From: an uncultured Candidatus Saccharibacteria bacterium
Lineage (GTDB): Bacteria > Patescibacteriota > Minisyncoccia > Portnoybacterales > UBA2143
Assembly: GCA_964413015.1 (NCBI GenBank)
Contig: CAYPQZ010000008.1
Location: 111,626-175,625 of the forward strand
Length of the DNA: 64,000 bases
Direction of reading: 5' to 3'
In this document: positions 1,041-64,000 of the stretch, piece after piece
How the letters are laid out: the number at the start of each line of letters is the position of its first letter
How positions within the stretch are numbered: position 1 is the first letter of the stretch
The notes under the pieces: generated by a model
What the model saw: the letters and a program-made list of their open reading frames with translations, nothing else
What the model was told of the DNA's origin: nothing
The model's database searches: none
Program-made: the position numbers and the translations under genes

Positions 1041-1232
1041 TTATTTTTTGGTCTTGCTCATGGCTTTGATGCATTTGGCGCAAGCCTTAACTCTTTTGCC
1101 ATTAGAAAGACGAACCCATTGTAAATTGGGGTATTTCATTTTTTTGCTGGTTGGGTTATAATTACCACGGAGCTTCTTTCGGGTAACCGTTACCATCGAT
1201 TTTTTCCCGCAAATAGCGCATACTCTGCTCAT
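1041..1232 (-). CDS. rpmB: 50S ribosomal protein L28
   Basis: 63 aa starting MSRVCAICGK...; typical L28 N-terminus and size. Confidence 0.85.
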   Translation of the reverse strand: MSRVCAICGKKSMVTVTRKKLRGNYNPTSKKMKYPNLQWVRLSNGKRVKACAKCIKAMSKTKK

Positions 1233-3262: not shown

Positions 3263-3364
3263 CATAATATTTATCCAAGAGCGAAGCGATTGGTAAATAA
3301 ATACTATATCCGTCTCAGGTGAACGCTGAATTTATTGGCAAAATCAAGATTTTGAATAAATTCG

Positions 3365-3438: not shown

Positions 3439-3569
3439 ACATAATATTTATCCAAAATTTATTTTGGTTATAGATATTATGCCCGCCTCAAGAGGGCTGG
3501 AAGTAGATCTTGCCCGCCTCAGGCGAACGCTGAATTTATTAGCAAAATTAAAATTTTGAATAATTTTGC

Positions 3570-3644
3570 GCCGAGGTAGCTCAGGGGTAGAGCATTCGAC
3601 TGAAAATCGAAGTGTCGGCGGTTCGATTCCGCCCCTCGGCACCA
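3570..3644 (+). tRNA. tRNA-Phe (GAA)
   Basis: Acceptor GCCGAGG/CCTCGGC, anticodon loop CU-GAA-AA, encoded CCA. Confidence 0.85.
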
Positions 3645-3647
3645 AAA

Positions 3648-3719
3648 GCGGGAGTAGCTTAGTGGTAGAGCGTCTCGTTGCCAACGAGAAGATCGCGGGT
3701 TCGAACCCCGTCTCCCGCT
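3648..3719 (+). tRNA. tRNA-Gly (GCC)
   Basis: Acceptor GCGGGAG/CTCCCGC, anticodon loop UU-GCC-AA, T-loop GGTTCGAACCC. Confidence 0.85.
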
Positions 3720-3792
3720 CAAATTGTTATAAGTTAAATAGTCAGAAAACGGCTTATCCAAGCCATTTTTTAGTAAAAAAAGAGTAAAAATA

Positions 3793-3822
3793 CTTGACAA
3801 ATATGTCAAGCTATGATAGTAT
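3793..3822 (+). promoter_or_regulatory. sigma70-like promoter with overlapping palindrome
   Basis: TTGACA (3794-3799), 17 bp, TAGTAT (3817-3822). CTTGACAAATATGTCAAG is a perfect inverted repeat across the -35 (possible operator). Confidence 0.5.
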
Positions 3823-3917
3823 ATAGGGAATCCCTGAAAGGGGATTTTTAATTTGTTTGTTTTCTTGCCTTTGAATAGATAATTTTTTATCTGTTCAAAG
3901 AAGGAGCAAACAGGTTT

Positions 3918-4400
3918 ATGTATACTATCAGCAGCAAGTTTTCCGTTTCACTAGTCTTAGTTAGCTTATTTTCTAACATTGTTTTCCCTAAATATGGATT
4001 AACTGATAGCGATTTAGAAGAAATTGATTTAATGTCGGAAGATTCTTTGGCCACTGTCCAAGGACAGGCCTTGATTCAACCGGGTTTTCCGTATGTTCCT
4101 GAAGTGGTTGCCCAAAATTGGGTAACGATTACCGCTTATTCCAGTACGCCTGACCAGACCGACTCAACCCCTTTTATTACCGCTTCCGGGAAAACCGTTT
4201 GTGACGGAATCGTCGCTTGTAACTTTTTAAGCTTCGGGACCAAGGTTCGTTTCCCTGAATTGTACGGAGATAAAATTTTCGTGGTTGAAGACCGAATGGC
4301 TCTTCATAACAGTCATAAAATAGATATCTGGTTTTCGACTCGCTGGGAAGCAAAACAATTTGGAGTCAAGATAACTAAGGTTGAAGTATTAGGAACATAA
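3918..4400 (+). CDS. 3D-domain (MltA/YuiC-like) cell-wall binding/lytic protein
   Basis: Signal peptide and conserved D...D...D-containing 3D-domain-like core (ITAYSS...CDGIVAC...DRMALHNSHKIDIWF). Confidence 0.6.
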   Translation: MYTISSKFSVSLVLVSLFSNIVFPKYGLTDSDLEEIDLMSEDSLATVQGQALIQPGFPYVPEVVAQNWVTITAYSSTPDQTDSTPFITASGKTVCDGIVACNFLSFGTKVRFPELYGDKIFVVEDRMALHNSHKIDIWFSTRWEAKQFGVKITKVEVLGT

Positions 4401-7917: not shown

Positions 7918-7940
7918 AGAAGATATGACCGCTTTCGCGC

Positions 7941-7986
7941 AGCTACTGGCGGACTTCGTCACGCCGTAGCCACGCTTCAGCGTGGC
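7941..7986 (-). repeat. tRNA-Ser-associated double-hairpin repeat (1 copy)
   Basis: AGCTACTGGCGGACTTCGTCACGCCGTAGCCACGCTTCAGCGTGGC. The same roughly 45-bp unit recurs at 49801-49886 and 50239-50328. Confidence 0.8.
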
Positions 7987-7991
7987 AAAGG

Positions 7992-8078
7992 CGGAGAGGG
8001 TGGGATTCGAACCCACGGTCATCCAAAGACGACAACGGTTTTCGAGACCGTCCCTTTCGTCCGCTCAGGCACCTCTCC
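7992..8078 (-). tRNA. tRNA-Ser (CGA)
   Basis: Acceptor GGAGAGG/CCTCTCC, anticodon loop CU-CGA-AA, long variable arm, T-loop GGTTCGAATCC. Confidence 0.85.
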
Positions 8079-8323: not shown

Positions 8324-8399
8324 GGTTTTTCCGCGACGTCTCCGCTTACGCGGAGCGCGCGGACCCGCTCACTTTGACTTTAGTCAAAGATGAAGCGGG

Positions 8400-8435
8400 C
8401 GAGACCGTCCCTTTCGTCCGCTCAGGCACCTCTCC
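8400..8435 (-). pseudogene. duplicated 5' half (nt 1-35) of tRNA-Ser(CGA)
   Basis: 36/36 identity with 8043-8078 (CGAGACCGTCCCTTTCGTCCGCTCAGGCACCTCTCC). The copy stops inside the anticodon. Two hairpins (8324-8396) follow it. Confidence 0.8.
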
Positions 8436-21987: not shown

Positions 21988-22086
21988 AAAATTATTCAAA
22001 ATCTTTAATTTTGTTTATAATTTTAGAGCCTGCCTTTGGCAGGCACTGATTTTTATATCCAAAACAAGTTTTGAACAAAAATCGTG

Positions 22087-22159
22087 TGGGCGTGCCAGGA
22101 TTCGAACCTGGGGCCTAGGCCTTATAAGGACCCCGCTCTAACCGCTGAGCTACACGCCC
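22087..22159 (-). tRNA. tRNA-Ile (TAT) (anticodon UAU, not CAT)
   Basis: Acceptor GGGCGTG/CACGCCC with A73, anticodon loop CU-TAT-AA, T-loop GGTTCGAATCC. Confidence 0.6.
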
Positions 22160-42008: not shown

Positions 42009-42062
42009 GGCCCCATCGTCTAGCTGCCTCTTCGGCAGCCCACCGATGAGGTGGGTGGTTTT
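42009..42062 (+). pseudogene. duplicated 5' 15 nt of tRNA-Glu followed by two hairpins
   Basis: GGCCCCATCGTCTAG at 42009-42023 equals 42063-42077. Then CTGCCTCTTCGGCAG and CCCACCGATGAGGTGGG hairpins. Confidence 0.6.
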
Positions 42063-42134
42063 GGCCCCATCGTCTAGTGGTTAGGACACCAGGTTTTCAT
42101 CCTGGCAACAGGAGTTCGATTCTCCTTGGGGCTG
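42063..42134 (+). tRNA. tRNA-Glu (TTC)
   Basis: Anticodon loop UU-TTC-AU, T-loop AGTTCGATTCT. Confidence 0.8.
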
Positions 42135-42185
42135 CATGATGAATTGACAAAATAGCACGGATGTGCTATTTTGTTTTGAGAAAAT

Positions 42186-46942: not shown

Positions 46943-49081
46943 TTACTCCAAATGAATTGTCTTTTGGAAATTGTCCAGTTTATTCTTCAAGAGAGGATTA
47001 GAAAGGTTTTCCCCCAGAACCTTTTTAGCCGCCTGGCGGCTTTTTTGAATTAACTCTAAGTCATCCAAAGAAGCCATAATTAGGTCCGGTAGACCCCATT
47101 GCTGAGCGCCGATAAAATTTCCCGGTCCGCGTATTTTTAAATCCTTTTCGGCTAACTCAAATCCGTCCTTGGCTTTAAGGATAGCTTTTAGCCGCTGATG
47201 GGTCTTTTTAGCTGACGAATCGGTGAAAAGGAAACAATGGGACTGGTCTTTCCCTCGGCCAATCCGACCGCGAAATTGATGAAGCTGGGCTAGTCCGAAA
47301 CGGTCAGCTCCTTCAATAAGCATAATGGTTGCATTAGGAATATCCACCCCTACCTCAACTACCGAGGTGGAAACTAAAACATCTATTTTACCATCCTTGA
47401 ATTTTTTCATAATTTCTTCTTTCTCTTTCGGCTTAAGCTTTCCGTGCAGCATAGCTATTTTAAACTTCGGAAAAATCTTCTTTGAAAGTTTCTCATATTC
47501 TTCTGTTACGGCCCTTACATCCGTCCATTCGTCTTTTTTAGTTTTTAATTTTGAGTTGTAATTTTGGCTTTTGGCTTTTGGCTTTTGAGTTTCGATTCTG
47601 GGGCAAATCACAAAGGCCTGTTTTTTTTGTTGGATTTGTTTCTTAATGAAATTATATGCTTTTTGACGGTCGTCTGGCGCGACTATTTGAGTAATGATTT
47701 TTTGTCTGCCTTTAGGCAATTCCTTAATTAAGGAAATATCCAGGTCTCCGTAAACAGTTAAGGCCAAGGTGCGAGGAATCGGAGTGGCGGTCATTGATAA
47801 AAAATGGGGCTGATGAATATTTTTTTGCAGAGCGGCTCTTTGAAGGACTCCAAAACGATGCTGTTCGTCAATAATGGTTAGACAGAGGTTTTTAAAATTT
47901 AAATCTTCCTGTAGCAAGGCATGGGTTCCGATAGCGATATCTATTTTCCCTTGACTAATTTGTTTTTTCAGCTGGATTTTAGGGATTGTTCTTCTTTTTG
48001 AAGAATAATCACTAAGGGTAGACTCTGTCCTAGTTAGTAGGGCGATTTTTACGCCGGATTTTTTAAGTAAGTTCTTAAAGGTCTGAAAGTGTTGCTTGGC
48101 CAGAATTTCTGTAGGAGCCATCAGAGCGGTTTGATGCCCGGCTTTAGCTGTTTCCAAAGCAACCATTACAGCGACAACGGTTTTGCCTGAGCCGACATCA
48201 CCATTAAGCAGACGGTTCATTGGTTTGTCTTGGGCTAAATCCTGAAAAATTTCCCAGGCGGCTAATTTCTGGCTGTTGGTTAGTTTAAAAGGAAGATTTT
48301 TAACAAAAGATTTAATGAGCTTCTGATTGAAGGGAATTGGTTGCGCCTTTTCCTGGCTTAGTTTCTGTTTTTGTTGAAGAAACATTAACTGCATTAAAAA
48401 AAGCTCGTCAAAAGACAATCTTTGGCGGGCTTTTCTGGCTAATAAAAGATTATCGGGGAAATGAATTTGCTTGATTGCTTGGCCAAGGTTCATTAAGGAA
48501 AAGTTCTTTTTAATTTGCTCCGGTAAAAAATCGACGAATTGAGAGCTTAAAGGCAGAAGCGGCTTGATTAAATAGCGGAGATACCGGGAGCTTAAACCGG
48601 TGGTTTCCGGATAAACTGGAGTCAACCGGCCAGTATGTGTGAATTGAGAACTGTCCACATTTTTAGTGACAGTCCCTACTATCTCATATGCCGGATTAGA
48701 AAGAACCAAGGTTCCTCTGGCAGAACTTAATTTGCCTGAAAAATTAATTAACCTATTTTTCTTGAGCGTTTCGGTTAAATAGGGCTGGTTGAACCAAACA
48801 GCTTTAATAACGCCGCTGTCGTCTTTAATCAGAGCCTCGGTTAAAACCATCCTTTTCCGGAAAATCCGGGCATTCTCTATTTCAGCAATTTTCCCCTGAA
48901 TGGTCGCCGGCTGGCCCTTTTTCAACTGGCTAATTGGTAGAATCTGGCTGAAGTCTTCATAGCGGTGGGGAAAATGAAAAAAAAGGTCCTTAATTGTCTT
49001 AATGCCAAGCTTATGAAGCTTTTTCAAATAAACAGGACCTACTTTCTTAATTTGTTCAATTTTAGTTAGCAGGGATAACAT
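46943..49081 (-). CDS. recG: ATP-dependent DNA helicase RecG
   Basis: N-terminal wedge, GDVGSGKT Walker A, DEQHRFGV motif II, 712 aa. Confidence 0.85.
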   Translation of the reverse strand: MLSLLTKIEQIKKVGPVYLKKLHKLGIKTIKDLFFHFPHRYEDFSQILPISQLKKGQPATIQGKIAEIENARIFRKRMVLTEALIKDDSGVIKAVWFNQPYLTETLKKNRLINFSGKLSSARGTLVLSNPAYEIVGTVTKNVDSSQFTHTGRLTPVYPETTGLSSRYLRYLIKPLLPLSSQFVDFLPEQIKKNFSLMNLGQAIKQIHFPDNLLLARKARQRLSFDELFLMQLMFLQQKQKLSQEKAQPIPFNQKLIKSFVKNLPFKLTNSQKLAAWEIFQDLAQDKPMNRLLNGDVGSGKTVVAVMVALETAKAGHQTALMAPTEILAKQHFQTFKNLLKKSGVKIALLTRTESTLSDYSSKRRTIPKIQLKKQISQGKIDIAIGTHALLQEDLNFKNLCLTIIDEQHRFGVLQRAALQKNIHQPHFLSMTATPIPRTLALTVYGDLDISLIKELPKGRQKIITQIVAPDDRQKAYNFIKKQIQQKKQAFVICPRIETQKPKAKSQNYNSKLKTKKDEWTDVRAVTEEYEKLSKKIFPKFKIAMLHGKLKPKEKEEIMKKFKDGKIDVLVSTSVVEVGVDIPNATIMLIEGADRFGLAQLHQFRGRIGRGKDQSHCFLFTDSSAKKTHQRLKAILKAKDGFELAEKDLKIRGPGNFIGAQQWGLPDLIMASLDDLELIQKSRQAAKKVLGENLSNPLLKNKLDNFQKTIHLE

Positions 49082-49152
49082 TAAATATTGACCCCGTTAT
49101 CCGACAGGGCATAATATTTGTTAGCCAAATTAAAATTTGGATAAATATTATG

Positions 49153-49226
49153 CGTCCTCGGCAGGACTTGAACCTGCGACCTCTTCCTCCGCAAGGAAGC
49201 GCTCTATCCAACTGAGCCACGAGGAC
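49153..49226 (-). tRNA. tRNA-Arg (GCG)
   Basis: Anticodon stem CTTCC/GGAAG, loop UU-GCG-GA. Confidence 0.65.
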
Positions 49227-49793
49227 TTAAAATTTCAAACTGCGGGCTAAATTGTCAATCAGGGATTCTTTATGTTTTCTTTCAGGCAGGTATTTAAGTA
49301 AAAGCCTTCTTACTTCAACCGGGTTTTCTTCGCCTAAAGGGATTTTAATGTAGGGCATAATTGTTTTCTGACTGCGGATGCTTAATTCTCTGATTAACGG
49401 CGGTTCATAAAAAACCCAGAAAGACCTTAAGCTGTCAAAAGTGTAGAAAGTTTTGTTAATTTTAATTCCTTTAGGAGTGATTGTTAAGTTAAGGGTATTC
49501 GGTCTTTTAAAAGCAAAAGCGGTTACGGAAAAACAGCTTAAGATAATTAGAAAGGCAAAAATGAAATTCTTGCTAAAAATGGCCCAGATGAACAATCCGG
49601 TGGCAATCACTCCGATAGTAATAAACCAAGATTTGCTTTTTTTGTAATATTCAAATTCCGGAGCCGTCCATTCAAGGCGATCCTTTTTTCTTTCAGTTTC
49701 CTTTTTCGTTTCAGCTTTTCCCTCAACGTTTTTGGTATCACGTTCAGTCGGATTCATTTGTTTTTCTTTTAAATTTAAAACATTCTCAGTCAT
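49227..49793 (-). CDS. hypothetical membrane protein
   Basis: Lys/Glu-rich N-terminus, two TM helices, no family match recognised. Confidence 0.4.
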   Translation of the reverse strand: MTENVLNLKEKQMNPTERDTKNVEGKAETKKETERKKDRLEWTAPEFEYYKKSKSWFITIGVIATGLFIWAIFSKNFIFAFLIILSCFSVTAFAFKRPNTLNLTITPKGIKINKTFYTFDSLRSFWVFYEPPLIRELSIRSQKTIMPYIKIPLGEENPVEVRRLLLKYLPERKHKESLIDNLARSLKF

Positions 49794-49800
49794 ATTTTTA

Positions 49801-49886
49801 ACTGGCGGACTTCGTCACGCCGTAGCCACGCTTCAGCGTAGCTACTGGCGGATTTCGTCACGCCGTAGCCACGCTTCAGCGTGGCG
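49801..49886 (-). repeat. tRNA-Ser-associated double-hairpin repeat (2 tandem copies, first truncated)
   Basis: Same unit as 7941-7986. Confidence 0.8.
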
Positions 49887-49890
49887 AAGG

Positions 49891-49976
49891 CGGAGAGGGT
49901 GGGATTCGAACCCACGGTCGCCTAAGGCGACAGCAGTTTTCAAGACTGCCCGATTAAACCGCTCTCGCACCTCTCC
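49891..49976 (-). tRNA. tRNA-Ser (TGA)
   Basis: Acceptor GGAGAGG, anticodon loop CU-TGA-AA, long variable arm. Confidence 0.85.
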
Positions 49977-49983
49977 AAGAGGA

Positions 49984-50223
49984 TTACAATAAATGTTTTT
50001 TAATAAATGCTCTACTTGAACCGGATTTAAGATATTTTTCGAATTCGTATGCTTTGTATTTATCTTCAGTCGCAAAATAAAAGTTTAGCTTTGCTGGCAA
50101 ACGATTTACTGTTGCTGCTGCATGTCCTTTTTGATGTCGTTGAATTCTATCATTCAAGTCGTCAGTACAGCCTACATAATAGCCATCTTTGCATTTTAAG
50201 CTATAAACGTAATACATAAACAC
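49984..50223 (-). CDS. GIY-YIG nuclease family protein (YhbQ-like), paralog of 8081-8323
   Basis: MFMYYVYSLKCKDGYYVGCTDDLNDRIQRHQ has the GIY-YIG core. Ends 7 bp before the tRNA-Ser(TGA) 5' end. Confidence 0.7.
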   Translation of the reverse strand: MFMYYVYSLKCKDGYYVGCTDDLNDRIQRHQKGHAAATVNRLPAKLNFYFATEDKYKAYEFEKYLKSGSSRAFIKKHLL

Positions 50224-50238
50224 GTACCCGCTTTTGCG

Positions 50239-50328
50239 TAGCTACTGGCGGACTTCGTCACGCCGTAACCACGCTTCAGCGTAGCTACTGGCGGACTTCG
50301 TCACGCCGTAGCCACGCTTCAGCGTGGC
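50239..50328 (-). repeat. tRNA-Ser-associated double-hairpin repeat (2 tandem copies)
   Basis: Two 45-bp units, one with G to A in the loop. Confidence 0.8.
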
Positions 50329-50333
50329 GAAGG

Positions 50334-50418
50334 CGGAGAGGGAGGGATTCGAACCCTCGGTACCCGAAAGTACAACACCTTAGCAGGGTGCCCCATTCGA
50401 CCGCTCTGGCACCTCTCC
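50334..50418 (-). tRNA. tRNA-Ser (GCT)
   Basis: Acceptor GGAGAGG, anticodon loop CU-GCT-AA, long variable arm. Confidence 0.8.
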
Positions 50419-50456
50419 GTATTTTTACTTTAACATCTTGCTATTTAACAGTCAAT

Positions 50457-51119
50457 TTATCTCCTGGCAATGACTAATCCCCAGATTTCTTTGGGCTTGA
50501 GGGGTTTTAGGACTCGAGCGCATTCTCCCAAGGTGGCTCCGGTGGTGGCAATGTCGTCAATAAGAATAGCCGTAAAAGGACGTAATTTTAAGGACTGTCC
50601 TTTATTTAACATAAAGGCGTTTTTGATATTCTGCTTTCTTTGCCGAGCATTTTGGATTTGAGCCTGCGGCAAATTATATTTTTTCCGGACAATCAAGTTA
50701 TTAACAATTGGAATATTTAATTGCCGGCTAATTTCAAGAGCCAACAATTCTGATTGATTAAAGCCCCGCCAACGCAATCGTTTTTTGTGCAAGGGAACCG
50801 GAATTAGAATAGAATTCCTTTGAATAATGAAATCAGAAAGGACATTTATCCTTTGGACTAGGAGACATCCTAGCGGTTCAGCTAAATCTTTAATAAAGTC
50901 ATACTTGTAATTATGAATAGCTTTTTTAATCAGCGGATGAGCGTAATAGCTGGCCGCAACTAGACCGGTTAAGCCGCTTCCGGAGTTTAATTTTAAAGGC
51001 GGTTTTTTACTTAACGGGATTTGGCTAAAGCAAGTCGGGCAAATAAACTCTCGGTGAGTTTCTTTGCCGCAGCCAAGGCAGTAGACAGGGAAAAGTAAAT
51101 TGATTAAGAGATTTATCAT
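50457..51119 (-). CDS. comF: ComF-family protein (zinc finger + phosphoribosyltransferase domain)
   Basis: N-terminal CLGCG...CPTC, C-terminal ILIDDIATTGATL PRTase motif. Confidence 0.75.
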   Translation of the reverse strand: MINLLINLLFPVYCLGCGKETHREFICPTCFSQIPLSKKPPLKLNSGSGLTGLVAASYYAHPLIKKAIHNYKYDFIKDLAEPLGCLLVQRINVLSDFIIQRNSILIPVPLHKKRLRWRGFNQSELLALEISRQLNIPIVNNLIVRKKYNLPQAQIQNARQRKQNIKNAFMLNKGQSLKLRPFTAILIDDIATTGATLGECARVLKPLKPKEIWGLVIARR

Positions 51120-51213
51120 ATAGATAAAGATATCATAAAAGGCTGGTTGTGGATATCTTTTTTTTGAATCGTTTGTTAAATGTGATATACTTTTTAAGAC
51201 AGTAAGAACGATA

Positions 51214-52287
51214 ATGTTTTTATTTAAAAAAAAACCAAAGAATTCTTTAGGTATTGATATCGGCGCTTCAGCAATTAAATTTGTTGAGTTGGAAAAAAAA
51301 GATGGAAGGCACGTATTGAAAAATTATGCGATTTATTCTCTAAAGGAATATTTGAAGAAAAGCAACTATCAGGTTGGATTAAGCTCTCTTAAGATTACTA
51401 ATCAAGAGATTGCCGAGATAATCAAAAGAACGATTAAAAAAGCAAATATTGTTTCCAACTCTCTCTGTTTATCTGTCCCGGTTTATTCCAGTTTTTCTAC
51501 GGTAATTGATTTTCCTGATATGCCCGAAAAAGAAATTGCTTCAGCAGTTTCTTTTGAAGCTAAAAAATATATTCCGGTTCCGGTATCTGAAGTAATTTTG
51601 GACTGGAGTATTGTTGGTAATGTTGGTAAAACGTCGGACGGTAAATCCGTCCAGCAAATTCTGTTAGTGGCGGTTCCTAAAGACCTTGTTAATGGGTATA
51701 ATCAAATAGTTCGTTTAAGTGGTTTAAAACTTAAGGCCATAGAAGAAGAAGCTTTCAGTTTGAGCCGCGCCTTAATCGGCAACGATAAAAGTGTAGCGGT
51801 TATGATTGATTCAGGCGCCCGCTCTCTGAATGTCAGTATTGTTGATAACGGCTATATAAAAAATATACATAATCTGGAAATGGGTGGCGTAAAATTGAAC
51901 AAAATCATTGCTAGCCAAATGAACATTGATTTGGAAAAAGCCGAGGCATTGAAAAAGAAATTACCAGATAGCGAATTAGCCAACGGGCATTATCCTCGTC
52001 TCAGAGGCGTCATTCATTCCAGTCTAGAAGTTGTGGTTGCAGAAATTAAGAAAATTATTGATTCTTATCAGGAAAAATACGACCGGAAGGTAGAAAAATG
52101 CATTTTGGTTGGAGGAGGCGTTAGATTGTTTGAATTTGTTGATTTTTTGTCCAAGAGATTGAACGTTGATGTTTCTTTAGGCGATCCTTTTGCACGGATA
52201 GTTTATCCTTCTTTATTAAAACCGGCATTAAAAGAATTAGGTCCATCTCTGGCCGTTGCTACGGGATTGGCTATGAGGGAAAATTAA
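51214..52287 (+). CDS. pilM: type IV pilus assembly protein PilM
   Basis: Actin-like ATPase fold, GIDIGASAIKFV N-terminus. Confidence 0.75.
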   Translation: MFLFKKKPKNSLGIDIGASAIKFVELEKKDGRHVLKNYAIYSLKEYLKKSNYQVGLSSLKITNQEIAEIIKRTIKKANIVSNSLCLSVPVYSSFSTVIDFPDMPEKEIASAVSFEAKKYIPVPVSEVILDWSIVGNVGKTSDGKSVQQILLVAVPKDLVNGYNQIVRLSGLKLKAIEEEAFSLSRALIGNDKSVAVMIDSGARSLNVSIVDNGYIKNIHNLEMGGVKLNKIIASQMNIDLEKAEALKKKLPDSELANGHYPRLRGVIHSSLEVVVAEIKKIIDSYQEKYDRKVEKCILVGGGVRLFEFVDFLSKRLNVDVSLGDPFARIVYPSLLKPALKELGPSLAVATGLAMREN

Positions 52288-63040: not shown

Positions 63041-63496
63041 ATGATTAAGAATAAGTTGCCTCAGGTCAAAAAAGACATTAAGGCCTTTTTAACTAGCGAA
63101 GAAGGCAGGATTAATAAAAAGAAAGTGGCTAAAATCGCTATGACTGTTTTAGCTTTGGGGATTGGTTTGGCCGGAGCAATGAAGCCGGATCCAAGTTCAG
63201 CTGCTTGTTCTCACGCTTCTCATGGCTCTCACAGCTCCCATAGTTCCCATGGCTCCCATGGCTCTCATGGTTCCCATGGTTCCCATGGCTCCCATGGCTC
63301 TCATAGTTCTCATAGCTCTCATAGTTCCCATGGCTCTCATGGCTCCCATGGTTCCCATGGTTCCCATGGTTCCCATGGCTCCCATGGCTCCCATGGTTCC
63401 CATGGTTCCCATGGTTCCCATAGTTCCCATGGCTCCCATGGTTCCCATGGCTCCCATGGTTCCCATAGCTCCCATAGCTCCCATAGCTCTTATTAA
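63041..63496 (+). CDS. His-Xaa-Ser repeat precursor peptide (leader + ~30x S-H-G/S)
   Basis: N-terminal leader with one hydrophobic stretch, then SHGSHGSHSSH... to the stop. Confidence 0.7.
   Translation: MIKNKLPQVKKDIKAFLTSEEGRINKKKVAKIAMTVLALGIGLAGAMKPDPSSAACSHASHGSHSSHSSHGSHGSHGSHGSHGSHGSHSSHSSHSSHGSHGSHGSHGSHGSHGSHGSHGSHGSHGSHSSHGSHGSHGSHGSHSSHSSHSSY
63214..63493 (+). repeat. tandem 9-bp repeat (TCCCATGGY/TCYCATAGY) x ~31
   Basis: Direct nonamer array encoding the SHG/SHS repeats. Confidence 0.9.
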
Positions 63497-63508
63497 ATTT
63501 GTAATATG

Positions 63509-64000
63509 AGTTTGAATAAAAAAATACTATTTTCAACAATTATTATAATTATTTTTATAGTTGCCATATTTGTGGGAGCATTTTTTTATCTGCCTGAAGA
63601 GCAAATTCCATCAGATATTTCTCAGAAAACAGATAAGGAAAAATGCTTAGAAGATGTGGCTCAAATGACCGACCAAGAATTAATTAACGAAGTCAAGAAT
63701 TTAAAAGATCCATATGGAGAAACGGGTATTGTTGGCAGCGATGGCATTCCCAAAGATAGAATGTCCTGGGCCCAAAATCAAATGTCTCGATATCTAATTT
63801 GCAAATTGAGGATTAATTCTAATAATGAAGATGTTTATAATAGAGCAAAAAAGTTTATCGATGAATCAGGCTTTGAAGAAGAATACGAAGACAATAAACA
63901 GATTTATTTGTCCAAACTGGAAAGAGCGCGTTCTGTTCCTGTAGAAAACTCTTTTAATATACAGCTGGCCCTAGGCGATTTAGATGAAATCTGTCCCAAT
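63509..64000 (+). CDS. hypothetical membrane-anchored protein (5' part, runs off the window)
   Basis: ATG at 63509, N-terminal TM, open frame to the window end. It is absent from the ORF track only because no stop is seen. Confidence 0.45.

Follow-up and report, generated by a model that had tools for sequence, protein, structure and literature searches.

This study concerns a compact gene arrangement in a 64,000-nucleotide stretch of DNA, hereafter the window, from an uncultured Candidatus Saccharibacteria bacterium (NCBI GenBank assembly GCA_964413015.1, contig CAYPQZ010000008.1, positions 111,626 to 175,625). In this arrangement the gene for a small stand-alone GIY-YIG nuclease-domain protein, here termed f1, is sandwiched between two tRNA-Ser genes, each of which is trailed by tandem copies of a structured repeat, here termed the rod. 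The order is tRNA-Ser(GCT), two repeat units, the GIY-YIG open reading frame (ORF), a 7-nt gap (49977-49983) between its stop codon and tRNA-Ser(TGA), and two further repeat units, the same order as in a first-pass annotation of this DNA; all of these parts are on the minus strand (Table 1). The repeat period is 43 nt rather than the 45 bp given there, and the 79-amino-acid ORF it listed is correct if read from a GTG (49984-50223), while the conserved start is the ATG at 50217, which yields a protein of 77 amino acids. The tRNA-Ser(GCT) gene ends in ...CTCCGCC with no encoded CCA, and the window's tRNA-Ser genes encode ...GCC and then T in place of CCA. The half unit CTACGCAAAAGCGGGT closing the first rod array lies 8 nt ahead of the f1 ATG, and a 188-amino-acid membrane protein ORF (orf188, 49227-49793) opens with an ATG 5 nt past the second array. 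The sole promoter-like match 5' of the unit, TTGACT-17-TAAAGT, precedes tRNA-Ser(GCT); promoter-like and terminator-like sites were also looked for in the interval from this tRNA gene to the f1 ORF, and none was called; nor does the interval have space for a promoter of its own. A second, divergent GIY-YIG gene, here termed f2, precedes tRNA-Ser(CGA), which in turn is trailed by a single rod. As had been remarked, the three tRNA-Ser genes of the window share both the 5' start GGAGAGG and the downstream repeat.

The 43-nt unit CCACGCTGAAGCGTGGCTACGGCGTGACGAAGTCCGCCAGTAG occurs five times in the window at up to 3 mismatches (0.00 expected), each time in the direct trailer of a tRNA-Ser gene (Table 1), and a looser scan with the apical pattern of the rod returned the same five sites. 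Likewise, an unfiltered covariance model scored strongly in the window only at the three tRNA-Ser trailers (80, 75, and 68 bits), and none of the window's other 15 tRNA genes carries the repeat. Hence the first-pass annotation's concern that the repeat might be a generic one is not borne out in the window, where the only addition to the tRNA-Ser sites is a weak rod-like hairpin, GCCGTAGCTTTATGCGAAGGC, directly behind tRNA-Pro(GGG). This hairpin resembles the short GACGTAGCTTTAGCGAAGTC hairpins of many related spacers. In an Rfam 15 scan only tRNAs scored above threshold, with the rods remaining without a match down to E=10, and no family matching the rod was recovered at gathering thresholds from 18 related loci.

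Comparison of 115 distinct elements allowed base pairs to be counted for two fold models. From 5' to 3' the rod comprises X1, a 4-nt loop, X1', CTWC, GGCG-U-GAC-NNA-GUC-CGCC, A, GWAG, X2, GAAR, and X2'. In the nested model, where X1 pairs with X2' and X1' plus CTWC with GWAG plus X2, 94.4% of the alignment cells are paired, 280 cells are changed on both sides, and the covariation score of 0.306 is matched by none of 500 shuffles (0/500), with shifted registers being only ~30-36% paired. The alternative of two or three independent local hairpins, which is how the first-pass annotation had read each unit, was rejected as the conserved fold: the three-hairpin model pairs 85.7% of the cells with a covariation score of 0.200, and its third hairpin is only 65% paired. 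Double changes in the nested helices include CG/GC/UA at columns 10-69, UA/CG at 11-68, GC/UA/AU at 22-58, UA/CG/AU at 23-57, and AU/GC at 24-56, and even the apex shows a compensatory change from GAC/GUC to GAU/AUC. No variation across rods is seen in the core GGCG...CGCC or in most of the apical hairpin, such that the alignment that had been suggested as a check on the hairpins displays covariation in the nested helices alongside an invariant core and apex. The two strands of the 4x4 internal loop also co-vary (UGAA/GAAA, AGUA/GAAG, CGAA/GAAG); purine-rich pairs of this kind often bind proteins in RNA. Single-sequence minimum-free-energy folds agree with the nested rod (z -3.8 to -6.6): the first array folds into one long rod (-69.3 kcal/mol, z=-6.6), and the single copy behind tRNA-Ser(CGA) again folds as the nested rod.

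The element is also strand-asymmetric. Among its non-Watson-Crick cells G·U (83-91) predominates over A·C (16-23), and the covariance model scores 68-80 bits on the tRNA strand versus 37-44 bits on the opposite strand (for the first array, 74.8 bits on the minus versus 39.5 bits on the plus strand), which indicates that it is the transcript, or else the single-stranded DNA of the sense strand, that adopts the fold. On its 3' side the apical hairpin has a hexamer identical to the 3' end of the preceding tRNA, namely UCCGCC at Ser loci and CCCGCC at 5/5 Trp loci, and the switch from the Ser to the Trp form is accompanied by the matching change in its pairing partner. Given this identity, the tRNA 3' end could be an additional pairing partner for the 5' strand of the hairpin, or the common hexamer could provide microhomology for insertion. 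The rod is a well-supported new structured element of ~60 nt, with an invariant apical hairpin and without an Rfam family.

Both GIY-YIG proteins pass the gathering score of the Pfam model PF01541 (f1, 49 bits; f2, 64 bits; cut-off 22.6). We detected 909 homologs of f1, the best 120 of which are 73-86% identical to it over the full 77 residues and are labeled Patescibacteria, Paceibacterota, or Moranbacteria; many homologs lie on very short contigs, as expected if assembly breaks at repeats. A search of 1.84 billion cluster representatives returned 152 at E<=1e-10 and 2213 at E<=1e-3, with identity grading from 75% to about 45% over the best 150. In an alignment of 25 diverse members (82% mean column identity) Y3, Y5, Y14, G16, R24, R27, and H28 do not vary, and E60 reaches at least 90% conservation; by analogy to characterized GIY-YIG domains, this Tyr/Arg/Glu set is predicted to furnish the catalytic and metal-binding residues. 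The only PDB sequence match of f1 is 1ZG2, the UPF0213 protein BH0048 (E=2e-7), and a Foldseek search with its AlphaFold2 model (predicted local distance difference test score 90.6) again recovered 1ZG2 first, followed by the Slx1 nuclease domain (7CQ3, 6SEI; TM 0.62-0.66) and the I-TevI catalytic domain. These concordant matches in sequence and fold place f1 in the stand-alone Slx1-like cluster, where the UPF0213/YhbQ/BH0048 proteins are its closest counterparts, having the same size and no extra domain. A conserved C-terminal Asn is missing in f1, there being no invariant Asn past E60 in the 25-member alignment, which agrees with the UPF0213 proteins as described (PMC1564403). No match to f1 was found among NCBIfam, PHROGs, and PADLOC models, homing-endonuclease models included, while f2 shows sub-threshold N-terminal matches to TIGR01453 (25.8 bits, cut-off 56), phrog_7168, and the PADLOC model HEase (PDLC03701). 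An anti-phage defense identity was accordingly set aside, with f1 unmatched and f2 showing only this weak 'HEase' hit in PADLOC.

The arrangement recurs across many lineages of the candidate phyla radiation (CPR)/Patescibacteria. In a scan of GTDB covering all lineages with one genome per species, f1 loci were confirmed 205 times in 185,579 genomes, a distribution that is sporadic, and the best 80 of these 205 loci were read individually. A co-oriented tRNA-Ser gene lies 67-420 nt upstream of f1 in 57/80, typically ending 67-140 nt before the ATG, and bears the anticodon GCT, TGA, GGA, or CGA, besides some ACT calls; other upstream tRNAs are Trp (five loci), Glu (one), and Asp (one). Of the 16/80 loci without an upstream tRNA, 10 lie within ~450 nt of a contig end, and most of the tRNA-less loci either abut such an end or have the ...CCGCC-TTCG rod nonetheless. 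The spacer between tRNA and f1 always opens with TTCG after ...CCGCC and contains the same element as the window's repeat. A tRNA-Ser that also follows f1 at ~10 nt is confined among the 80 loci to the window's own clade and the loci L025 and L028. With the upstream gene being frequent and the downstream one rare, the conserved link of f1 is tRNA-Ser, spacer, and nuclease, rather than nuclease followed by tRNA. Therefore, the enrichment of GIY-YIG genes beside tRNA-Ser that the first-pass annotation had anticipated is real, and its remark that two of the three tRNA-Ser genes have such a gene immediately 5' is accurate for the window (gaps of 7 and 2 nt), but the order it had proposed for relatives has to be reversed for f1, and a nuclease preceding the tRNA is a conserved rule only for f2.

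Bias from protein-based selection was avoided in a second sample of 120 metagenome loci found with a 27-nt rod pattern alone. Here 79/120 have a tRNA-Ser by the rod (64 directly preceding it and 15 more within 250 nt), one has a tRNA-Asp, f1 follows the rod within 250 nt in 61/120, and 20/120 have neither tRNA nor f1. Tandem arrays of 2-5 rod units occur, and CCGCC-TTCG precedes every rod, tRNA-less rods included. The tRNA-less sites share only the text ...CCGCC-TTCG, often with an A-rich run (on the opposite strand, a hairpin plus T-run), and Rfam revealed no other RNA genes that would account for them. In one tRNA-less class (L214, L220, L288, L064, L078) the text before CCGCC-TTCG, GGTTCAAAGTTCCGGNCATCGTCCCCGCC, reads as conserved coding sequence of the opposite strand (...DDVRKFEPKTWLKF...), and the rod and the beginning of a convergent gene may overlap there. 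A further set of loci (L036, L053, L068, L216, L234) has a tRNA-Ser with the anticodon loop UU-ACU-AA, i.e., with a wobble A in place of the usual GCU, followed by the rod and f1.

These two samples bear on the plainest explanation, namely that the repeats are intrinsic terminators of tRNA-Ser genes next to which the nuclease gene lies by chance. GC-rich hairpins are indeed common behind tRNA genes. However, no T-run follows the rods, the next text being either A-rich and ATG-proximal or another rod, and an intrinsic terminator sought in 49600-50600 was not called, on which grounds the terminator identity was rejected. Moreover, the repeat pattern is expected 0.00 times by chance, the link of rod to f1 emerges in loci chosen without reference to f1 (61/120), and that of f1 to tRNA-Ser in loci chosen without reference to rod or tRNA (57/80). 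We consider this explanation highly improbable and agree with the first-pass annotation that the arrangement is a dedicated one: it is real, recurrent, and apparently undescribed. A literature search for GIY-YIG proteins with tRNA-Ser, CPR, or RNA motifs did not find it described, most subscription journals lying outside the coverage of that search. Two other identities were tried and rejected. A viral origin was sought with an 18-nt apical pattern in IMG/VR, where the 120 matches are chance occurrences in GC-rich phage coding sequence, with one low-GC match, L094, among them. The guide-RNA arrays of the TIGR-Tas systems of CPR do not fit either: the neighbor here is a GIY-YIG protein, not a Nop-domain Tas protein, and the rods lack variable spacers, presenting a 3-nt loop and covarying stems where TIGR-Tas repeats would carry spacers. 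GIY-YIG is not mentioned in the TIGR-Tas paper.

Clues to the behavior of f1 come from a syntenic block of PilM, ComF, the tRNA-Ser pair, orf188, tRNA-Arg(GCG), and RecG, which is kept in many loci down to ~30% protein identity (e.g., L311, L003, L059, L282, L321, and L028) and thereby provides one locus at which cassette occupancy can be compared across lineages. The window has the order GCT, two rods, f1, TGA, two rods, orf188. Its closest relative, L311 (PilM 78%, orf188 75%, and RecG 74% amino acid identity), has GCT, 80 nt, TGA, one rod, orf188, without f1 or the rod after GCT, the 80-nt spacer being an unrelated AT-rich palindrome. The more distant L003 (PilM 61%, orf188 64%) has GCT, one rod, f1, and TGA with no rod behind TGA; L059 has GCT, 14 nt, TGA, rod, f1, orf188, with f1 thus behind the tRNA pair; L282 has no f1; and in L331 the gene lying exactly between GCT and TGA, at the window's f1 site, is an f2. 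Homologous sites are therefore polymorphic for presence and absence, being occupied in the window and L003, empty in L311, shifted in L059, and taken by the other family in L331. In the L003 lineage, genes for a RelB/ParE toxin-antitoxin pair and for glutamate dehydrogenase (3484-4023) are inserted between tRNA-Ser(TGA) and the orf188 homolog, at the place of the window's second rod array.

Sequence divergence was also compared across this block. The tRNA-Ser(GCT) of the window shares 93% identity with its L003 counterpart and 56% with that of the closer L311 (both comparisons being of short sequences), while its tRNA-Ser(TGA) tracks host relatedness (88% to L311, 83% to L003). The rod unit is identical between the window and L003, and synonymous divergence (dS) between the two is 0.73 for f1, a gene of only 77 codons, versus 1.5 for PilM, 2.0 for orf188, and saturation for ComF. 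From these comparisons, with dS drawn from just 77 codons, the block of tRNA-Ser(GCT), rod, and f1 looks to have been replaced horizontally between lineages. Across 17 comparisons f1 identity is uncorrelated with host-gene identity (rho about 0, n=17, short sequences), and two f1 copies were found in each of four metagenome-assembled genomes. Downstream of f1, stretches from the 3' portion of the tRNA in front reappear in L045 (nt 69-86), L046 (70-84), L066, L217, and L029, and in L079/L080, L019, and L033 the intact tRNA-Ser is separated from the rod by 3' fragments of a different tRNA-Ser. Sublineages of f1 specialized to tRNA types were considered and rejected, identity within types being about that between types, with 76 amino acids carrying little signal. 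In sum, f1 is selectively maintained yet sporadic, and its position varies at one syntenic locus.

The f2 family, which is faster-evolving and much more variable than f1 (41 matches), presents a comparable organization on the 5' side of tRNA genes. Its constant layout begins with a partial copy of the downstream tRNA, taken from the 5' part; one or two GC hairpins come next, then 4-14 nt of resumed tRNA text, the ATG and ORF, and finally the intact tRNA. The hairpins sit exactly in the D-loop (nt 14-21), in the anticodon loop (nt 35-36), or in the T-loop after GGTTCG of the partial copy. In the window, the region ahead of f2 folds at -57.6 kcal/mol (z=-5.2), and the layout recurs in at least 12 further loci (L031, L046, L074, L249, L254, L258, L272, L312, L329, L333, L220, and L335), involving tRNA-Glu in L220 and tRNA-Arg in L335. 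Versions without an ORF occur in L019 and in the window itself, where the intact tRNA-Glu(TTC) directly follows the partial copy, with a 16-nt exact direct repeat at a spacing of 54 (Table 1). Pseudo-copies of tRNA-Ser carry a double hairpin (e.g., CCCCAGCATTCGCGGGG + CGCCCGGCGCATGCCGGGCG) exactly after GGTTCG in the T-loop; it is seen in unrelated lineages and has covarying stems. As the f2 cassette is flanked on both sides by text of its target gene, homologous repair could copy it into any similar tRNA gene.

Presence/absence and positional polymorphism, together with degenerate copies, partly duplicated tRNAs, and the apparent co-replacement of the neighboring tRNA gene, are best accommodated by homing, one of the three roles the first-pass annotation had put forward. 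We therefore favor, at somewhat better than even confidence, the reading that f1 together with the rod makes up a compact cassette of homing type that propagates itself and resides behind the tRNA-Ser 3' end (...CCGCC), with the action of the nuclease being predicted. Under this proposal the cassette would lack a promoter of its own and be expressed by read-through from the tRNA promoter via the rod and the ORF. Processing of the tRNA 3' end, probably by an RNase Z-type cut behind the discriminator, would free an mRNA with the rod at its 5' end; RNase Z action on CCA-less precursors is established in other bacteria. The mRNA would thus begin a few nucleotides before a very stable rod, which might protect it or act as a binding or regulatory site, stable structure near an mRNA 5' end being a known means of 5'-end protection. 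The invariant and nearly palindromic apex would be the likely binding site of f1, on RNA or DNA. The nuclease would then break DNA at or near tRNA genes lacking the cassette, and an occupied locus would be the template from which repair copies the cassette, with conserved tRNA sequence acting as a homology arm and both flanking tRNA-Ser genes potentially serving as arms in the sandwiched form of the window. The tRNA and rod could be co-converted, leaving ORF-less rods and partial tRNA copies as footprints: a short conversion tract would spread the rod alone and a longer one the rod and the ORF. The f2 family may act likewise from the 5' side of tRNAs.

Several observations weigh against homing. 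The whole 77-amino-acid f1 is accounted for by the catalytic domain (Pfam match over residues 1-67, in agreement with the model), and a separate DNA-binding module such as those of I-TevI and SegB was sought in f1 and not found. The 2006 survey of GIY-YIG proteins regarded the Slx1/UPF0213 cluster as a minimal, mainly vertically inherited form apart from the homing-endonuclease lineage (PMC1564403). Purifying selection on f1 is strong (median dN/dS 0.08, with dS saturated in ~3/4 of pairs); among 63 complete copies in the rod-selected sample 55 are intact and 4 clearly degenerate, a picture of stronger selection and fewer pseudogenes than textbook homing cycles would give. Hosts with ComF proteins only ~33% identical share the order GCT, rod, f1, TGA, and occupied alleles retain an intact tRNA and an intact rod, i.e., no obvious self-immunity. 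Lastly, rods without f1 are as well paired as those with it (18.6 vs 18.95 of 20 pairs); the decay that might be looked for in f1-less rods was tested and not seen, and the rod may hence have a life of its own.

A host function with mainly vertical descent would give the same pattern of selection and synteny. Here f1 and the rod would be a ribonucleoprotein or enzyme-substrate pair for tRNA-Ser biogenesis, acting in 3'-trailer removal, quality control, or regulation of the tRNA-Ser operon. The selection on f1 with its few pseudogenes and the recurrence of the sandwiched order in very divergent hosts agree with this, as do the structure of the rod on the RNA-sense strand, its apical hairpin kept invariant as for a protein-binding site, the hexamer it has in common with the 3' end of the preceding tRNA, and a TrmH fusion in the same GIY-YIG cluster, which has been taken as a hint of RNA metabolism (PMC1564403). 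It is difficult to reconcile, however, with the tRNA pair of the closest relative, L311, doing without f1, with just 205 loci in the species genomes scanned, and with an isoacceptor that varies and may be replaced by tRNA-Trp, Asp, Glu, or no tRNA at all. Further, some f1 copies are degenerate, and the partial tRNA duplications point to DNA rearrangement rather than RNA processing. To our knowledge, all biochemically characterized GIY-YIG nucleases act on DNA. With the cassette also at non-Ser tRNAs and non-tRNA sites, the tRNA-Ser processing role is the least supported of those initially entertained for the locus, and we judge a host function of this kind to be unlikely.

The well-formed rods without f1 would also fit a reading in which the rod itself is mobile in the manner of repetitive extragenic palindromic (REP) sequences and their associated tyrosine transposases (RAYT), inserting after CCGCC via single-stranded DNA or microhomology, with f1 as a structure-specific nuclease that mobilizes rods in trans. 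About half of the rods lack an adjacent f1, tandem arrays occur, CCGCC-TTCG precedes rods also away from tRNAs, and the rod is a bulged hairpin whose apical sequence is fixed; f1 is similar to the structure-specific nuclease Slx1, G·T wobbles would be tolerated in folded single-stranded DNA too, and other GC hairpins lie exactly in the D-, anticodon-, or T-loops of tRNA pseudo-copies. Against such mobility, the rods are not dispersed, the 64 kb holding only those of three tRNA-Ser trailers and the weak one behind tRNA-Pro, and target-site duplications flanking rods were not found. We know of no GIY-YIG transposase. The REP-like role proposed in the first-pass annotation is weakened by this confinement to tRNA trailers in the window, and we hold it to be possible, if rather doubtful.

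One bold and, in our estimate, quite improbable reading is that the rod, rather than a protein domain, supplies target recognition for a nuclease made up of the catalytic domain only, either as RNA or as folded sense-strand DNA, with pairing or microhomology between its hexamer and ...CCGCC directing where the 300-450-bp cassette lands. If true, no smaller autonomous mobile unit with nucleic-acid targeting would be known from bacteria, and together with f2 it would amount to a 'spliceless intron' strategy, in which the tRNA is rebuilt from a replacement part carried by the element.

Among known systems, the nearest counterpart of these cassettes is, on our best reading of the analogies, the phage protein SegB, a free-standing GIY-YIG endonuclease of T-even phages that is enriched beside tRNA genes, cuts inside them at RAWTSGAAC, and drives segmental amplification (PMC13096335). 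In our reading, RAWTSGAAC is the T-loop text GTTCSAWTY in reverse complement. Both systems have an intron-less GIY-YIG gene among tRNA genes, and the co-conversion and tandem amplification of SegB find parallels here in the tandem rods, the partial tRNA copies, and the breakpoints at GGTTCG-AATCC. SegB differs in being a phage protein with a C-terminal region beyond the catalytic domain, a truncation of which is non-toxic on overexpression whereas the wild type is toxic (PMC13096335), and in having neither an isotype preference nor a conserved structured element in front; f1 is cellular, 77 amino acids long, of the Slx1/UPF0213 cluster, and mostly tied to tRNA-Ser. The UPF0213 cluster has been portrayed as inherited mostly vertically and is predicted to act in DNA repair (PMC1564403). 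A fixed place behind tRNA-Ser with an upstream rod was not found described in the literature search, subscription journals being largely outside its coverage.

Fungal mitochondria harbor mobile GIY-YIG ORFs with double-hairpin or GC-cluster elements, e.g., the Allomyces atp6 insertion. These likewise place GC-rich hairpins in an AT-rich genome, and their cassette brings a replacement piece of the target and leaves the displaced fragment, which the f2 layout and the 3' fragments behind f1 resemble. They differ in residing in organelles and targeting protein-coding genes, whereas the present elements target tRNA genes in free-living or episymbiotic bacteria and have a hairpin of conserved, covarying, RNA-type structure. 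Islands and prophages with tyrosine integrases also insert in tRNA genes, regenerate the gene they enter, and leave behind a direct repeat made of part of the tRNA; here, however, there is no integrase, the whole insert is 300-450 bp, and the partial copies of the f2 layout are of the tRNA 5' part and end in tRNA loops. REP/RAYT elements (REPtrons) and integron attC sites are similar in combining short imperfect palindromes of conserved structure and bulges with one dedicated enzyme gene, but the present loci have no Y1 (HUH) transposase or integrase and their rods are not dispersed.

The window contains several other features alongside these loci (Table 1). A second tRNA-trailer element, which is unrelated to the rod, is an AT-rich palindrome starting with ATAATATTTATCCAAA directly behind tRNA-Arg(CCT), tRNA-Ala(GGC), and tRNA-Arg(GCG); its motif also makes up the spacer of the tRNA-Ser pair in the f1-free L311. 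The palindrome AAGGACNGTCCTT(TA) has 11 strand matches against 0.03 expected, at six places in the window, several of them near gene ends. A long array of 9-bp tandem repeats comprises at least 26 shifted copies. ARAGORN also called a tRNA-Ile with the anticodon TAT, which is uncommon in bacteria.

Table 1. Positions of the features discussed, in window coordinates unless a related locus (L number) is named
Feature	Position	Strand	Remarks
Promoter-like TTGACT-17-TAAAGT	50427..50455	minus	Consensus match only; ends 8 nt ahead of tRNA-Ser(GCT)
tRNA-Ser(GCT)	50332..50418	minus	ARAGORN; Rfam tRNA 55 bits
Rod array 1	50226..50331	minus	TTCG linker 50328-50331; unit 1 50285-50327; unit 2 50242-50284; half unit 50226-50241
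f1, stand-alone Slx1/UPF0213-type GIY-YIG, 77 aa	49984..50217	minus	PF01541 E=8e-13
tRNA-Ser(TGA)	49889..49976	minus	ARAGORN; Rfam tRNA 55 bits
Rod array 2	49799..49888	minus	TTCG + two 43-nt units (49842-49884, 49799-49841); 68.2 bits; no nuclease gene behind
Partial tRNA-Ser(CGA) copy with hairpins and resumed tRNA text	8324..8435	minus	tRNA nt 1-36 at 8400-8435; repeat family D4, 91% over 46 nt, spacing 357
Two GC-rich hairpins	8364-8399, 8331-8362	minus	Followed by AAAACC (8324-8329) resuming the tRNA text
f2, GIY-YIG, 80 aa	8081..8323	minus	PF01541 E=1e-17; 33% identical to f1
tRNA-Ser(CGA), intact	7990..8078	minus	ARAGORN; 2 nt past f2 stop codon
Single rod after tRNA-Ser(CGA)	7921..7989	minus	TTTG, 43-nt unit 7943-7985, closing half unit; 80 bits
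Weak rod-like hairpin	849-891	minus	Directly behind tRNA-Pro(GGG); 18.8 bits, E=0.002
ORF-less f2-type layout	42009..42062	plus	tRNA-Glu nt 1-15 copy, double GC hairpin, TGGTT (nt 16-20)
tRNA-Glu(TTC), intact	42063-42135		
Syntenic block	46943-52287		
T-loop double hairpin	L003 3355-3400; L019 1375-1420; L331 ~1090-1190		Also in L074 and L254, upstream of f2
tRNA-Ser with UU-ACU-AA loop	L036 1326-1414; L053 1329-1417; L068 1309-1397		
ATAATATTTATCCAAA trailer	3264-3279, 3441-3456; 49136-49151; L311 4466-4545	plus; minus; –	
Palindrome AAGGACNGTCCTT(TA)	1328, 35375, 41921, 46925, 50588, 59673		
9-bp tandem repeats	63171-63534		
tRNA-Ile(TAT)	22086-22159	minus	ARAGORN

If the homing reading is correct, CPR/Patescibacteria harbor very small selfish cassettes of one family at their tRNA genes. 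These would account for the assembly breaks, unusual trailers, and partial tRNA copies found at tRNA-Ser loci, and a tRNA gene could be replaced horizontally along with its cassette. A simple annotation rule, tRNA-Ser followed by a TTCG-rod and then a 77-amino-acid ORF, flags such loci. The rod apex and f1 offer a concrete hypothesis of binding and cleavage, with a protein small enough to be synthesized. Homing-type behavior would thereby extend to the minimal Slx1/UPF0213 branch of the GIY-YIG nucleases, a widespread family.

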